From: a virus
Taxonomy: Duplodnaviria > Heunggongvirae > Uroviricota > Caudoviricetes
Virus record (IMG/VR): IMGVR_UViG_646311923_000005
Reading direction: 5' to 3' (one strand)
Length of the DNA stretch: 41,721 nt
The position numbers are program-made. Positions 9,001 through 15,000 of the stretch are shown here, one piece after another. The first letter of the stretch is position 1. Each line of letters starts with the position of its first letter.

Positions 9001-12000
9001 CACGTCAGCGGTGGGGACGGGATACTGGTTACTGCAGCTGCTGGACAAAGTCTCTCCGTCCCAGTGGGTGGCAATAGGTGTGCTGGGAAGTCTGCTGTTT
9101 GGCCTGCTGACGTATCTGACAAATCTTTATTTCAAGATTAAAGAAGATAAGCGTAAGGCTGCGAGAGGTGAATAATGTCGCCGTCATTACGCAAGGCTGT
9201 TGCAGCTGCTATTGGTGGTGGGGCTGTTGCCATAGCGTCTGTGCTCATCACTGGTCCAGGTGGTAACGATGGTCTGGAAGGTGTCAGCTACATACCATAC
9301 AAAGATATCGTTGGCGTATGGACTGTATGTCACGGACACACCGGAAAAGACATCATGCCCGGTAAAACGTATACCGAAGCAGAATGCAAAGCCCTCCTGA
9401 ATAAAGACCTTGCCACGGTCGCCAGACAAATTAACCCGTACATCAACGTCGATATATCGGAAACAACGCGCGGCGCTCTTTACTCGTTCGTTTACAACGT
9501 GGGCGCTGGCAATTTCAGAACATCGACGCTTCTTCGCAAAATAAACCAGGGCGATATCAAAAGCGCATGTGATCAGCTACGGCGCTGGACATACGCTGGC
9601 GGTAAGCAATGGAAAGGGCTGATGACTCGCCGTGAGATTGAGCGTGAAGTCTGTTTGTGGGGGCAACAATGAGCAGAGTAACCGCGATTATCTACGTTCT
9701 GGTCATCTGCCTCATCGTCTGCCTTTCATGGGCTGTTAATCATTACCGTGATAACGCCATCGCCTACAAAGAGCAGCGCGATAAAGCCACATCCATCATC
9801 GCTGATATGCAGAAGCGGCAACGTGATGTAGCAGAACTTGACGCCAGATACACAAAGGAGCTTGCTGATGCTAATGCGACTATCGAAAGTCTCCGTGCTG
9901 ATGTTTCTGCTGGGCGTAAGCGCCTGCAAGTCTCCGCCACCTGTGCAAAGTCAACGACCGGAGCCAGCAGCATGGGCGATGGAGAAAGCCCAGGACTTAC
10001 AGCAGATGCTGAACTCAATTATTACCGTCTCCGAGGTGGAATCGACAGGATAACCGCGCAGGTTAACTACCTGCAGGAATACATCAGGACGCAGTGCTTA
10101 AAATAATTTTAATTTCACTGAAATTTAACAAGTGACTTTCAGGAAAATGCCTCGCAGATGCGGGGCATTTTTGTACCGGTATTTCACCGCGCACCGCAGC
10201 GCACAATAAACACCGAACCTGACCCTTTGGAATGGGCCTTTGAGGATACCAGTTAGTGCTGGCGAGCCTCGGTGGGCTGGTTTCCTGTGCGGCAAAGGTT
10301 CATTTCAAAGAAGCAGGCAACGCCATGAATGAATTAATTGCGAATCATGACTTCGACTTTCGCCAGTTAGTTACCGCAGCAGAAGGTCAACCGGTAACTG
10401 ACACCTTCCAGATTGCCAGGGCATTTGGTAAACGCCATCAGCATGTGATTAGGGCTATTAAATGTTTGAGATGTTCTGAGGAATTCTCGACAACCCATTT
10501 TTGGGCCGTCGAGAAAATCAATGACTTAGGGATTTTTGACAAGAAACAGATTTACTACCGCATGGACTTTAGTGGCTTCGTTATGCTGGTTATGGGATTT
10601 AACGGGGCAAAAGCCGATGCTGTTAAAGAAGCCTATATCAATGCGTTTAACTGGATGTCAGCAGAACTCCGTAAGTACAGCGAAAGTTATGAAGCAGAAC
10701 GCAACGCCATAATGCTGGAGTATATGAAAGTGAACCGCCCCGGTTTTCCTGGAGAGTGTTTTATCTGTGAACTCAGGCTGCCAGATCATCGTTTCTGATG
10801 GAAGCATAATAAGCTTTTTCTGCTTCTGCCGGAGGGATATGACCCAGCCTTCCCAGCAATCGTCGATTGTTATACCAGTCCACCCACGTGAGTGTGGCCA
10901 GTTCCACTTCTGCACGGTTTTTCCAGCTCTTACGGTGTATTACCTCCGCTTTGTAAAGACCATTGATGCTCTCCGCCATCGCGTTGTCATACGAGTCACC
11001 TGTACTCCCTGTTGATGCCAGCAGTTTTGCTTCTTTTAGTCGCTCCGTATAGGCCAGTGATACATACTGAGAACCTTTATCACTGTGATGGACTGTGCCG
11101 GACGGCCGACGGGCCCACAACGCCTGCTCCAGTGCATCCAGCACGAATGTCGTTTCCATAGACGATGAGACTCGCCACCCCACGATACATCCGGCAAACA
11201 CATCAATGATGAACGCCACATAGACGAAGCCCTGCCATGTGCTGACGTAAGTAAAATCAGCCACCCACAGCTGGTCAGGACGTTCTGCCACGAACTGACG
11301 GTTTACGCGGTCGCCTGCGGAAACGGCTTTCCGGCTGACGGTAGTACGGACCTTTTTACCCCGGAGAACACCGGCAAGTCCCATAACCGCCATGAGGCGC
11401 GCCACTGTACATCTGGCCACCCTGATACCTTCGCGTAACAACTGGCGCCAGACTTTACGCACACCGTACACCTGATGATTTTCATCGTATACGCGCTGTA
11501 TCTCTCTCTTCAGCCAGTCATCGCGCTGAGCACGGGCACTGCGTTTATCAGGATGATGTCGCTGTTGCTGACAGTGGTAATACGTTGACGGGGCAATATG
11601 CAGTTCACTGCATACCGGTCCGACCCCGTACTGCTCACGCAGCTTATCCAGCAGCGGCATTATTTTTTCCAGAGGCGGTCGAACTCCGCCTTCGCAAAAT
11701 AAGCGGAAGCCTGGCGAAGGATATCGTTACTGCGGCGCAGTTCACGATTTTCACGTTCCAGCTCTTTCAGACGCTGACGTTCAGCGGTGGTGAGTCCACC
11801 ATCACCACTCCCGGTATCCCGCTCATGCTGACGAACCCACACACGCAGAGTCTCTGGTGTACAGCCAATCTTTGGGGCAATGGAACAAATTGCCGCCCAT
11901 TGTGAGTCATATTCGCCCTGACTTTCCAGAACCATACGAACTGCCCGTTGACGGACCTCGGGGGAAAAACGTGTATTTTTAGTCATCCTGTTTACCTCTT

Positions 12001-15000
12001 TCTCAGGGAGTTTAGTCTCCAGGATTCCCGGGGCGGTTCAAAGAGAAGGATGTCGCCAGCATGTCAGGCCGTCTGCTCAATCGCTGGGGGAGAACGAAAA
12101 AACCTCAATTGCTTGCAAAGCTGGAACGTCTGGAGAGACAGGGACAGTTTTTATTACCGGGATTCGATAAAGGTATTCAAGCCTGACACATTATGCGCTG
12201 TATCGTCGCCGTATTCCCGCATTAACCATGACCGTAGCCCGACGGGGAATTCCTTCTGCGTGAGTGTGCGGGAATAATCAAAAACGATGCACACCGGGTT
12301 TTACTGTGCTGACAGACGCAGGGTTACCCTCATAGTCGCTTTTCCGGTGCGATGGTGGAAGAAACCGGGATGTTCATCCATCATCACTTTGGATTGATGT
12401 ATATGCTCTCTTTTCTGACGTTAGTCTCCGACGGCAGGCTTCAATGACCCAGGCTGAGAAATTCCCGGACCCTTTTTGCTCAAGAGCGATGTTAATTTGT
12501 TCAATCATCTGGTTTGGAAATCGGATGTTGCGGGTTGTTGTTCTGCGGGTTCTGTTCTTTGATGACATAATGTTGCCCCGTATTCAGTGTTGCTGATTTG
12601 TATTATCTGAAGTTGCTTTTACGCTAATTTGATGCAGATCAATTAATACGATACCTGCGTAATAATTGATTATTTCTCGTGGTTTGATGGCGTACACACA
12701 TGTCGTGATAAACCTCATGTAGATGATAATTATTATCATTTTCGTGGGTCCTTTCCGGCGATCCGACAGGTTACGGGGCGGCGACCTCGCGGGTTTTCGC
12801 TATTTATGAAAATTTTCCGGGATCCATGTCCGGTTTCTCTTCAAGTTAACTATATGAAAAATATAAAAACAGGTCTTCTGTGAACCGGACATGAACAAAA
12901 AACAGACATGTAAACCGGACATGACCGGTTTTGTTGTGATTGTGAGGTGAGAGTTTTTGCGAGGTGAGGAGTGGCTACGCAGACTGAAGTTGCCAGGCAT
13001 TTAAGTCTGACCGATCGCCAGCTTCGCAGATTGCAGAAATTGCCGGGTGCCCCGATATCGAATAAGCGAGGGCAACTGGATCTGGATGCCTGGCGCGATT
13101 TTTACATATCGTATCTGAGGAGAAGTAAAAACGATGTGCCTGATGGCGATAGCGAAGACGACTATGAGGAGAAATTGCTTATTGCCAGATGGGAACTGAC
13201 AGCAGAACAGGCTGTTACACAGCAGTTAAAAAATGAGGTGTCAAAAGGAAAACTTATTGACACCGGGTTCTGTATTTTTGCCCTCAGTAAGCTGGCAATG
13301 GCGTTATCCAGTACGCTTGATTCCATCCCTTTATCCATGCAGCGACAGTTTCCTGATTTAACACCGCGCCATCTTGACCATCTGAAAACCCTTATTGCTA
13401 AGGGGGCAAATCAGTGTGCGCGGGCAGGGGATAAATTACCGGATTTACTCGATGAATATATCAGAGCAACAACTGAATAATATGATGGCTGCCGTTTCGG
13501 TTGCGCTGCAGCCTCTGGTCAGGGTTGTACCAATGACGGCAGTTGAATGGGCTGATCAAAATTATTATCTGCCTAAAGAATCCTCATACGGTGAGGGCGA
13601 ATGGAAAACGCTGCCATTCCAGATCGCCATTATGAACTGTATGGGTAACGACCAGGTTCGCACGGTTAACCTGATTAAATCTGCCCGTGTTGGCTATACA
13701 AAGATGTTGCTGGGGGTGGTCGGGTATTTTATTGAGCATAAATCCCGAAACAGTCTGCTTTTTCAGCCCACGGATTCTGCCGCTGAAGATTTTATGAAGT
13801 CTCACGTGGAGGCGACGATTCGGAACGTGCCATGCCTGAAAGACCTTTCCCCATGGCTGGGTCGTAAACATCGTGACAATACTCTCACGCTGAAACGCTT
13901 TTCATCGGGCGTCGGTTTCTGGTGCCTGGGCGGCGCTGCCGCCAAAAACTACCGTGAAAAATCCGTGGACGTGGTCTGCTATGACGAACTTTCCTCGTTC
14001 GAGCCGGATGTCGAAAAAGAGGGCTCGCCAACCCTGCTGGGGGATAAGCGTATTGAGGGGTCGGTGTGGCCAAAATCCATTCGCGGCTCGACGCCTAAAA
14101 TCAAAGGCACCTGCCAGATCGAAAAAGCCGCTAACGAGTCGGCGCATTTTATGCGTTTTTATGTGCCCTGCCCGCACTGTGGGGAGGCGCAGTATCTGAA
14201 ATTTGGCGATGAGTCCACGCCTTTTGGGCTTAAATGGGAGAAGGACAGCCCTGAAAGTGTTTTCTACCTCTGTGAACATCATGGCTGCGTGATCCATCAG
14301 TCTGAACTGGACCAGAGCAACGGGCGGTGGATCTGTGAAAACACGGGCATGTGGACCCGTGACGGTCTGACGTTTTTCAGCGCCCGGGGTGATGAAATTC
14401 CGCCGCCGCGCTCCATCACGTTCCATATCTGGACGGCGTACAGTCCGTTCACCACCTGGGTACAGATTGTCTATGACTGGCTGGATGCACTGAAAGATCC
14501 CAACGGCCTGAAAACCTTTGTGAACACCACGCTGGGCGAGACCTGGGAAGAGGCCGTGGGCGAAAAACTCGATCACCAGGTACTGATGGATAAGGTTGTG
14601 CGTTACACGGCTGCGGTGCCTTCCCGGGTGGTTTATCTGACGGCGGGCATTGACTCGCAGCGAAACCGTTTTGAGATGTATGTCTGGGGATGGGCACCGG
14701 GAGAGGAAGCCTTTCTGGTGGATAAAATCATCATTATGGGGCGTCCCGATGAGGAAGAGACGCTGTTACGTGTGGATGCTGCGATCAACAAAAAATATCG
14801 CCATGCGGATGGCACCGAAATGACCATTTCCCGTGTCTGCTGGGACACCGGGGGGATCGATGGTGAAATTGTTTATCAGAGATCAAAAAAACACGGTGTT
14901 TTCCGGGTGCTGCCGGTAAAAGGCGCGTCTGTCTATGGCAAGCCGGTGATCACCATGCCGAAAACCCGCAATCAGCGGGGCGTGTATCTGTGTGAAGTGG

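Follow-up and report, generated by a model that had tools for sequence, protein, structure and literature searches.

An IS629-type insertion with an AAG target duplication in the rha gene of a defective O103:H2 prophage

The stretch of viral DNA analysed here (41,721 nucleotides, referred to throughout as the window) matches the genome of E. coli O103:H2 strain 12009 (AP010958.1) at 100% identity, and corresponds there to a lambda-like prophage integrated beside ybhC. This prophage is defective, its whole early region (immunity, replication and recombination) having already been lost; int is joined straight to a truncated dam gene, and an early region of ~12.5 kb is kept in strain 2015C-3163. 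The int/dam joint looks like the scar of an IS excision; an IS copy has seemingly been excised at a second site of the same prophage, near the rha locus. The rha site itself lies between the lysis cassette and the terminase genes, and is occupied by three consecutive features. The 5' part of rha, on the plus strand at positions 10325-10730, contains codons 1-135 and the first base of codon 136, and is 100% identical to intact alleles. An insertion sequence of the IS3 family follows on the minus strand at 10731-12040. The 3' part of rha, again on the plus strand (12044-12186), runs from the rest of codon 136 to the stop; it holds most of the coding sequence of the ORF11CD3 domain and now lacks a start codon. 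Comparison of the sequence with the empty site identifies the two copies of a target-site duplication, AAG, on the left at 10728-10730 and on the right at 12041-12043. A preliminary description of this DNA had placed a 1310-bp element with OrfA and OrfB, flanked by AAG direct repeats, at this locus; the extent of the element proved exact to the base, and both repeats were found.

The sequence of the element opens with the letters TGAACCGCCCCGG and closes with CCGGGGCGGTTCA. Its termini (TGAACCG...CGGTTCA) start with 5'-TG and close with CA-3', as do those of the IS629/IS1203/IS3411 group, to which the length of ~1310 bp also conforms. Terminal inverted repeats of 25 nt, complementary at 88%, were located with a repeat finder on the minus strand, the right one (orfB-proximal) at 10731-10755 and the left one (orfA-proximal) at 12016-12040. 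Two genes could be translated from the minus strand, overlapping in the 0 and -1 frames: orfA (11660-11986, 108 aa), with a match to HTH_Tnp_1 (PF01527, E=1.4e-12), and orfB (10773-11660, 295 aa), in the -1 frame relative to orfA. OrfB contains a DDE integrase-core transposase domain, with profile matches to rve (PF00665, E=1.1e-25), to HTH_21 (Pfam) and to NF033516 (312 bits), and the DD(35)E spacing can be read off its translation (WVADF ... HSDKG ... AMAES). A slippery run of six A closes orfA (TGG AAA AAA TAA TG; 11663-11668, minus strand), and is the predicted site of a programmed -1 frameshift that would yield OrfAB. The identical IS copy in strains 129 and EL361, which also hold three further IS copies 100% identical to the element at 10731-12040, carries the NCBI annotation 'programmed frameshift'. 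The ALIL pseudoknot, which stimulates frameshifting in IS3-family elements, was recovered at full length at 11589-11705 (minus strand) in an Rfam search (RF01497; 120.9 bits versus a gathering score of 50, E=3.8e-32). The NF033516, HTH_Tnp_1 and ALIL matches, together with a length and ends like those of the copy in VT2-Sakai, bear out the original view of the element as a member of the IS3 family resembling IS629.

A finer identification depends on the distance to named copies. By the ISfinder convention, isoforms share at least 95% nucleotide identity with the named copy. The element reaches this level with all three named IS629 copies, narrowly for two of the three: the 'IS629' of the O55:H7 phage JLK-2012 differs at 5 of 1310 positions (99.6% identity), the annotated IS629 of VT2-Sakai at 58 of 1310 (95.6% identity, no indels, equal length), and the copy on the S. 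sonnei Ss046 plasmid (pSS_046) at 66 positions (95.0% identity). The right inverted repeat is identical to the one annotated for IS629 in VT2-Sakai, the left one is one base off, and 58-59 substitutions (4.4-4.5%) separate the element from the Sakai/O111 type. There are 0 differences to the copy in the Stx2a phage Stx2_131990. Thus, alignment with annotated copies (95.0-99.6% identical) upholds the relationship to IS629 claimed at first, while the name has been refined to IS629 isoform, of an O55:H7-like sublineage. As far as sequence comparison goes the element can be classed as such, a name that is taken from the annotated copies and from the study of Rump et al. 2011 (PMC3271280); its weak point is that 95-95.6% identity to annotated copies is close to the limit commonly set for isoforms. 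Since the distances of 58 and 66 match the >55 and >60 bp reported between sub-type II and sub-types I and III, respectively, the element probably belongs to sub-type II in the scheme of Rump et al. 2011 (PMC3271280; reference strain CB9615), the assignment to this O55:H7 sub-type being drawn through the JLK-2012 copy (5/1310 differ). Sub-type II is also the closest one to Shigella IS629 in that study. The S. sonnei Ss046 copy was considered as a stand-in for the prototype IS629 and rejected: at 66 substitutions it does not settle the sublineage of the prototype, and its distance shows that the IS629 copies of Shigella are heterogeneous. The IS629 of O157:H7 Sakai (VT2-Sakai, AP000422) and IS1203/IS1203v have in common with the element a length of 1310 bp without indels, 25-bp inverted repeats, TG...CA ends, the orfA/orfB -1 frameshift, the ALIL pseudoknot, a 3-bp duplication and a preference for prophages. 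The O111-type IS is named 'IS3-like element IS1203 family transposase' by NCBI, whereas the label given by the NCBI pipeline to the copy of the element studied here is only 'IS3 family transposase'.

On the side of the host gene, rha starts with the ATG at 10325, while the NCBI annotation begins upstream at GTG 10256. Reading from rha into the element produces a truncated fusion ORF (10325-10798, plus strand), in which 135 native Rha residues are followed by 22 residues read from the IS (VNRPGFPGECFICELRLPDHRF) and by a stop. The product has 157 aa from the ATG and 180 aa if counted from GTG 10256; the exact 180-aa fusion protein is on record as BAI29629.1 / WP_000881325.1. In sister genomes the equivalent 5' stretch is annotated as 'Rha family transcriptional regulator', and the 3' stretch as a pseudogene fragment ('Rha family transcriptional regulator, missing N-terminus'). 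When 10325-10730 is joined to 12044-12186 an open frame of 549 nt (182 aa) is obtained. Taken alone, restoration of the frame is a weak test, because the duplication is 3 bp long and the frame closes also if both copies of the repeat are kept. We regard as decisive the fact that at least 21 complete E. coli genomes contain an uninterrupted gene, annotated 'Rha family transcriptional regulator', to which the repaired 549 nt are identical without gaps (549/549).

The repaired protein has the domains expected of the family: Phage_pRha (PF09669) covers residues 25-112 (E=5.5e-21, 75.4 bits versus a cutoff of 29.9), ORF11CD3 covers residues 121-174 across the insertion junction (E=1.7e-23), and TIGR02681 scores 73.3 bits (cutoff 45.95). 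In UniRef the intact protein is entered as 'Bacteriophage P22 Orf201 C-terminal domain-containing protein'. With 87.7% nucleotide identity over nt 1-470 to rha in the P22 records BK000583 and NC_002371, and the same Phage_pRha plus ORF11CD3 architecture, the repaired gene is the orthologue of phage P22 rha (orf201). The match occupies 39644-40113 of the 41724 nt of the P22 record, close to its end, a position that we take to be just after the lysis genes as well; the last ~80 nt of the two genes diverge, and the gene of the window, unlike that of P22, is interrupted and resides in a defective lambda-like prophage. These matches agree with the earlier proposal that removal of the IS and of one AAG restores rha. 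As judged from the domain boundaries, the truncated Rha keeps the winged-helix Phage_pRha domain and loses most of the C-terminal ORF11CD3. We infer any effect on Rha function, loss of function included; the truncated protein still has its DNA-binding domain and could retain activity or change it. A scan of positions 9600-13100 returned 1 promoter-like site (4.2 expected) and 7 terminator-like sites (3.7 expected), with none of either kind at the IS ends, so that the scan yields no evidence for an outward hybrid promoter or for polarity.

The left junction of the insertion reads GGAGTATATGAAAG followed directly by TGAACCGCCCCGG, and the uninterrupted rha site reads GGAGTATATGAAAGAGAAGGATGTC. 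A single AAG is present at the empty site of O45:H2 FWSEC0003 (ATGAAAGAGAAGG), whose prophage aligns in a single block with a 6.5-kb segment that comprises the repaired site and 3 kb to either side of it. The 3-bp duplication is within the range of 3-4 bp reported for IS629 (PMC3271280). A useful comparison is provided by the E. coli O111:H8/NM lineage, in which an IS1203-type copy occupies the 3' end of this gene; its breakpoint, at query positions 452-458, is 46 bp 3' of that in the window (406). Gene, IS orientation and IS family are all alike in the two cases; however, the O111 copy is of another sublineage and is without a target duplication (its flanks are GGC and AAC). Its far flank is nleG, which means that the whole morphogenetic region is gone in O111, and thus that the insertion there is a rearranged one. 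This is exactly the contrast to an unrearranged insertion that the preliminary description drew.

A further question is whether the AAG repeats of the window could be coincidental, the element having arrived by IS-IS recombination or through a composite rearrangement. The chance of a 3-bp match between flanks is 1/64, many IS629 copies of EHEC have no duplication (in Rump et al. 2011, PMC3271280, it was present at only 21/47 sites), and the O111 copy in rha lacks one as well. On the other hand, the flanks of the element are the two halves of one gene, which becomes 100% identical to intact alleles once the IS and 3 bp are taken out, and collinearity with the empty-site prophage extends over 3 kb on either side. 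By these alignments a coincidental origin of the repeats is already refuted, and we assign it a negligible probability. A simple insertion that has not since been rearranged, as originally proposed, is instead what the empty site and the collinearity of both flanks with sister prophages point to; the ends match those of IS629 and the frames join. We found no evidence against a simple insertion, the weak points of our account being what we say of neutrality and function, and the name of the element.

Of 5426 complete genomes only two (O103:H2 strain 129 and EL361) carry the same insertion, matched over 1862/1862 nt, and it is found in six draft assemblies as well; a search of the IMG/VR viral contigs for the exact left junction gave 0 matches. 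Three-piece matches with 100% query coverage in O145:H28 and O80 were rejected as instances of the same insertion, as the IS there is in the lysozyme gene and rha is intact. Carriers of the empty site include O103:H2 PV16-126, FWSEC0007, CEC12044, 20151001 and 2015C-3163. The intact 549-nt allele does exist, then, in this lineage of prophages, as a simple insertion requires. Among closed O103:H2 genomes the insertion is present in clades C1 (12009) and C2 (129), and absent from C3, C4 and C5. Since C1 is the ancestral clade (PMC12831630), this distribution would also be expected if the insertion were ancestral to O103:H2 and the intact rha of C3-C5 represented revertants by precise excision, a process that the excision enhancer IEE is known to promote for IS1203v/IS629 in EHEC strains (bioRxiv 10.1101/2023.06.07.543989) and of which the int/dam joint of the window may bear a trace. 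This history is made improbable by the presence of 100%-identical intact alleles in further strains, among them O45:H2 and an O121 strain, and by the rarity of the exact fusion protein (8 contigs, versus at least 1000 for the intact protein). Moreover, as C1 is paraphyletic, one late insertion on the branch to 12009 and C2 is sufficient to explain the pattern without any reversion, and a single late event is the reading that we retain.

A different concern is whether rha is a preferred or selected target, its inactivation being of benefit to the host or to resident prophages. The second, independent IS in rha of the O111 lineage, 46 bp further 3', would be in keeping with this idea, as would the possibility that the gene is harmful in some backgrounds: Henthorn and Friedman reportedly found in 1995 that Rha products inhibit phage growth in IHF-deficient hosts. 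However, in a spread listing that sampled the 536 E. coli records with the gene, taken together with the complete-genome search, only two IS-associated breakpoint classes (406, and 452-458 in O111) were seen among the records listed for ~360 genomes, and nothing in them points to an IS hotspot in rha. The great majority of alleles are intact, and in O111 the IS accompanies a large deletion or rearrangement, not a targeted knock-out. Furthermore, IS629 shows no sequence specificity in its choice of target, and prophages account for 62% of its copies anyway (PMC3271280). We therefore consider it very unlikely that rha is singled out as a target.

Overall, we are highly confident that the best explanation of the locus is a single clean insertion of an IS629-type element into the rha gene of a decayed prophage, probably neutral in its consequences. 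One transposition event brought an intact element into codon 136 of rha with duplication of the AAG target; IS3-family members are described as moving by copy-out-paste-in. No rearrangement has followed, and both flanks are still collinear with those of sister prophages; Rha is truncated after residue 135, with the addition of 22 IS-encoded residues. Because the early region was already lost and rha is non-essential for lambdoid phages, the insertion was most likely selectively neutral, and may represent one more step in the IS-driven decay of the prophage. Since the element is intact and the duplication is perfect, the insertion could also be reversible, and an exact excision of the IS might give back an intact rha. 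Two less ordinary readings are unlikely: that the rha::IS629 junction is a stable marker which defines the ancestral (C1/C2) part of global STEC O103:H2, and that rha inactivation is under positive selection in effector-carrying cryptic prophages, as the separate IS hits of the O103 and O111 lineages might suggest. The truncated Rha, with its winged-helix domain, might besides have an altered or dominant-negative action towards co-resident lambdoid (Stx) prophages.

The insertion is real but ordinary. It is already known and annotated in public records (as an IS and two Rha fragments), the source genome was published in 2009, and the significance of the locus goes little beyond bookkeeping. 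Polymorphism between strains through IS629-type insertions in EHEC prophages is textbook knowledge. The rha::IS629 junction is nonetheless a candidate typing marker within O103:H2, present in the closed C1 and C2 genomes and absent from C3-C5, and the locus offers a clean case, found in nature, of an IS insertion that may be reversible.

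The element lies on the minus strand at 10731-12040; it is 1310 bp long, starts with TGAACCGCCCCGG, ends with CCGGGGCGGTTCA, and carries 25-nt terminal inverted repeats (10731-10755 and 12016-12040) that a repeat finder scores as 88% complementary. Direct AAG repeats, read from the sequence, flank it at 10728-10730 and 12041-12043. The match on the right-hand flank can be extended to AAAG by the chance identity of the final A of the element; we set the duplication at 3 bp because every compared copy is 1310 bp long with TG...CA ends. Two minus-strand frames, orfA (11986-11660, 108 aa, with an HTH_Tnp_1 match) and orfB (11660-10773, 295 aa, with HTH_21, rve and rve_3 matches), overlap at TAATG directly after an A6 run. 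OrfB scores 312 bits against the NCBIfam model for IS3-family transposases (cutoff 160), and its DD(35)E spacing is visible directly in the translation. The ALIL pseudoknot, a frameshift stimulator of the IS3 family, is matched full length by Rfam at 11705-11589 (120.9 bits), and NCBI labels the identical copies of strains 129 and EL361 'IS3 family transposase, programmed frameshift'. Repeats, domains and ALIL thus bear out the IS3-family element with OrfA and OrfB recognized in the preliminary description.

Excision in silico, joining 10325-10730 to 12044-12186 on the plus strand, restores the rha frame as that description had proposed, yielding 549 nt and 182 aa. The repaired protein contains Phage_pRha (residues 25-112, E=5.5e-21) and ORF11CD3 (residues 121-174, E=1.7e-23), the latter domain crossing the junction, and scores 73 bits against TIGR02681; the annotated rha of phage P22 is 87.7% identical to the repaired gene in DNA over nt 1-470, and UniRef names the intact protein 'Bacteriophage P22 Orf201 C-terminal domain-containing protein'. 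NCBI places the start at a GTG at 10256, 69 nt upstream, for an intact length of 205 aa. As interrupted, Rha is cut off after residue 135, keeping the winged-helix domain, losing most of ORF11CD3 and gaining 22 IS-encoded residues.

With a duplication of 3 bp, a restored frame is in itself little proof. Strong evidence comes from the gap-free match, at 100% identity, between the repaired 549 nt and the intact annotated genes of at least 21 complete genomes. The prophage of O45:H2 FWSEC0003 has the same layout with the gene at equal distance from int, and its empty site reads GGAGTATATGAAAGAGAAGGATG, with one AAG only; the 3-kb flanks of the window on both sides form one unbroken alignment with this prophage, at 98.9% identity. 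Identical intact genes, a single-AAG site and collinear flanks establish a simple insertion with no subsequent rearrangement. Both the observation and the interpretation of the preliminary description are correct.

The name IS629 calls for some qualification. We compared full-length copies, all of 1310 bp with zero indels, and the IS629/IS1203 copies fall into three sublineages 51-66 substitutions apart. The first comprises this copy, that of the Stx2a phage Stx2_131990 (0 differences) and the 'IS629' of the O55:H7 phage JLK-2012 (5 differences). The second, at 58-59 differences from this copy, pairs the IS629 annotated in VT2-Sakai with the O111 IS1203, which differs from it by 1; the Shigella sonnei Ss046 plasmid and O145:H28 copies, 6 differences from each other, form the third, at 66. 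Against the annotated Sakai IS629, the element has an identical right inverted repeat and one different base in the left. NCBI names are inconsistent: one sublineage is called 'IS3-like element IS1203 family', and the remaining two carry the generic name 'IS3 family transposase'. Rump et al. (2011) described sub-types I and II of IS629 as more than 55 bp different, and II and III as more than 60 bp different, with sub-type I IS1203-like and sub-type II, of O55:H7 type, reportedly nearest to Shigella IS629 (PMC3271280). Judged by substitution counts, our distances reproduce these three sub-types, and the element is an IS629 isoform, most probably of sub-type II. The original name is acceptable, although the familiar O157 copies are only 95.6% identical.

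The 180-aa fusion protein exactly matches BAI29629.1 / WP_000881325.1, and in AP010958.1 (E. coli O103:H2 strain 12009) the corresponding 5543 nt match the window at 100% identity. Of 5426 complete E. coli genomes, just 2 (O103:H2 strain 129 and swine strain EL361) contain the identical 1862-nt insertion structure; with six additional draft assemblies the fusion protein is found on 8 contigs in total, compared with at least 1000 that encode the intact protein, and IMG/VR holds no exact match to the junction. In terms of the clades of the STEC O103:H2 population tree (PMC12831630), in which C1 is ancestral and paraphyletic, the closed O103:H2 genomes have the insertion in 12009 (C1) and 129 (C2), and lack it in PV16-126 (C3), FWSEC0007 and CEC12044 (C4), and 20151001 and 2015C-3163 (C5). 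This pattern is read most simply as a single insertion within the C1 branch from which C2 also arose; an ancestral insertion, later lost by precise excision, is less parsimonious.

O111:H8/NM genomes carry an IS1203-type copy in the same gene, 46 bp further 3' and in the same orientation; in O111:NM FWSEC0005 (compared locus L003) it falls within 3001-4810, at a site equivalent to about 12089 of the window, and it is common to about 14 O111 genomes. Unlike the window copy with its AAG duplication, it has none (flanks GGC and AAC) and adjoins nleG on its far side. The O111 insertion is independent of ours and is rearranged, the whole morphogenetic region being lost there. These two classes of IS-associated breakpoint, in the listed records of about 360 gene-carrying genomes, do not indicate an rha hotspot, in agreement with the lack of target sequence specificity of IS629 and its location mostly in prophages (PMC3271280).

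The host prophage is lambda-like and adjoins ybhC. Its layout, transferred from the annotation of a related genome with offsets verified, runs int; 5'-truncated dam; ninE, ninF, ninG and a phosphatase gene; a truncated antiterminator gene; lpxR; Q; a SASA esterase gene; holin, lysozyme and Rz; rha::IS; terminase, head and tail genes; and the effector genes nleB2, truncated nleC, nleH, cif, an nleG-like gene and nleA. The inserted lpxR cargo gene (lipid A deacylase; 3075-4034, minus strand, annotation transferred) is flanked by a 72-nt antiterminator remnant and a second, intact Q. The effector cargo region (34311-40566), 3' of the tail fibre genes, also includes an integrase fragment before the DUF1076/NleG-like gene; nleC is reduced to a 96-aa ORF (35325-35615) and nleA is on the minus strand. 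In EL361 an additional ISCro1 (IS66 family) separates the integrase fragment from the DUF1076 gene, and in strain 129 an IS copy lies inside the SASA esterase gene; the window has neither. Over 37 kb the window and EL361 prophages differ at 81 positions (73 mismatches and 8 gap positions), almost all in 6826-7357 and 8492-8823, in the SASA-family (NanS-p-like) esterase gene or directly following it, a clustering that suggests a recombination mosaic.

The same prophage in strain 2015C-3163 still carries xis, exo, bet, gam, kil, cIII, N, cI, cro, cII, O, P, ren and ninB; about 12.5 kb of this early region is missing from the window, and autonomous replication or induction is impossible. At 1020-1035 (joint 1026-1028) int is fused directly to the truncated dam. 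In 10 other complete genomes the same IS, 1310 bp long, occupies exactly this joint, AAAGGTT[IS]GTCGGATGG, both flanks being native int-side and dam-side sequence of the intact 2015C-3163 prophage; the window reads AAAG[GT]CGGATGG, without IS and with a 2-bp GT overlap. The joint looks like a scar of IS excision following an IS-mediated deletion, and fits microhomology-mediated end-joining of the type associated with the IS excision enhancer (IEE).

P22 and phi80 carry rha as a non-essential accessory gene, and its product, as Henthorn and Friedman reportedly found in 1995, hinders phage growth in hosts deficient in IHF. Beyond this, Rha-domain proteins are just 'suggested' regulators (PMC8951638). 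A promoter and terminator scan returned nothing at the IS ends. The insertion is an ordinary one, previously annotated in a published genome, and its scientific weight is low; because rha is non-essential and the prophage defective, we infer neutral decay. With element and duplication intact, and with precise excision of IS629/IS1203v described in IEE-positive EHEC (bioRxiv 10.1101/2023.06.07.543989), the mutation is potentially reversible.
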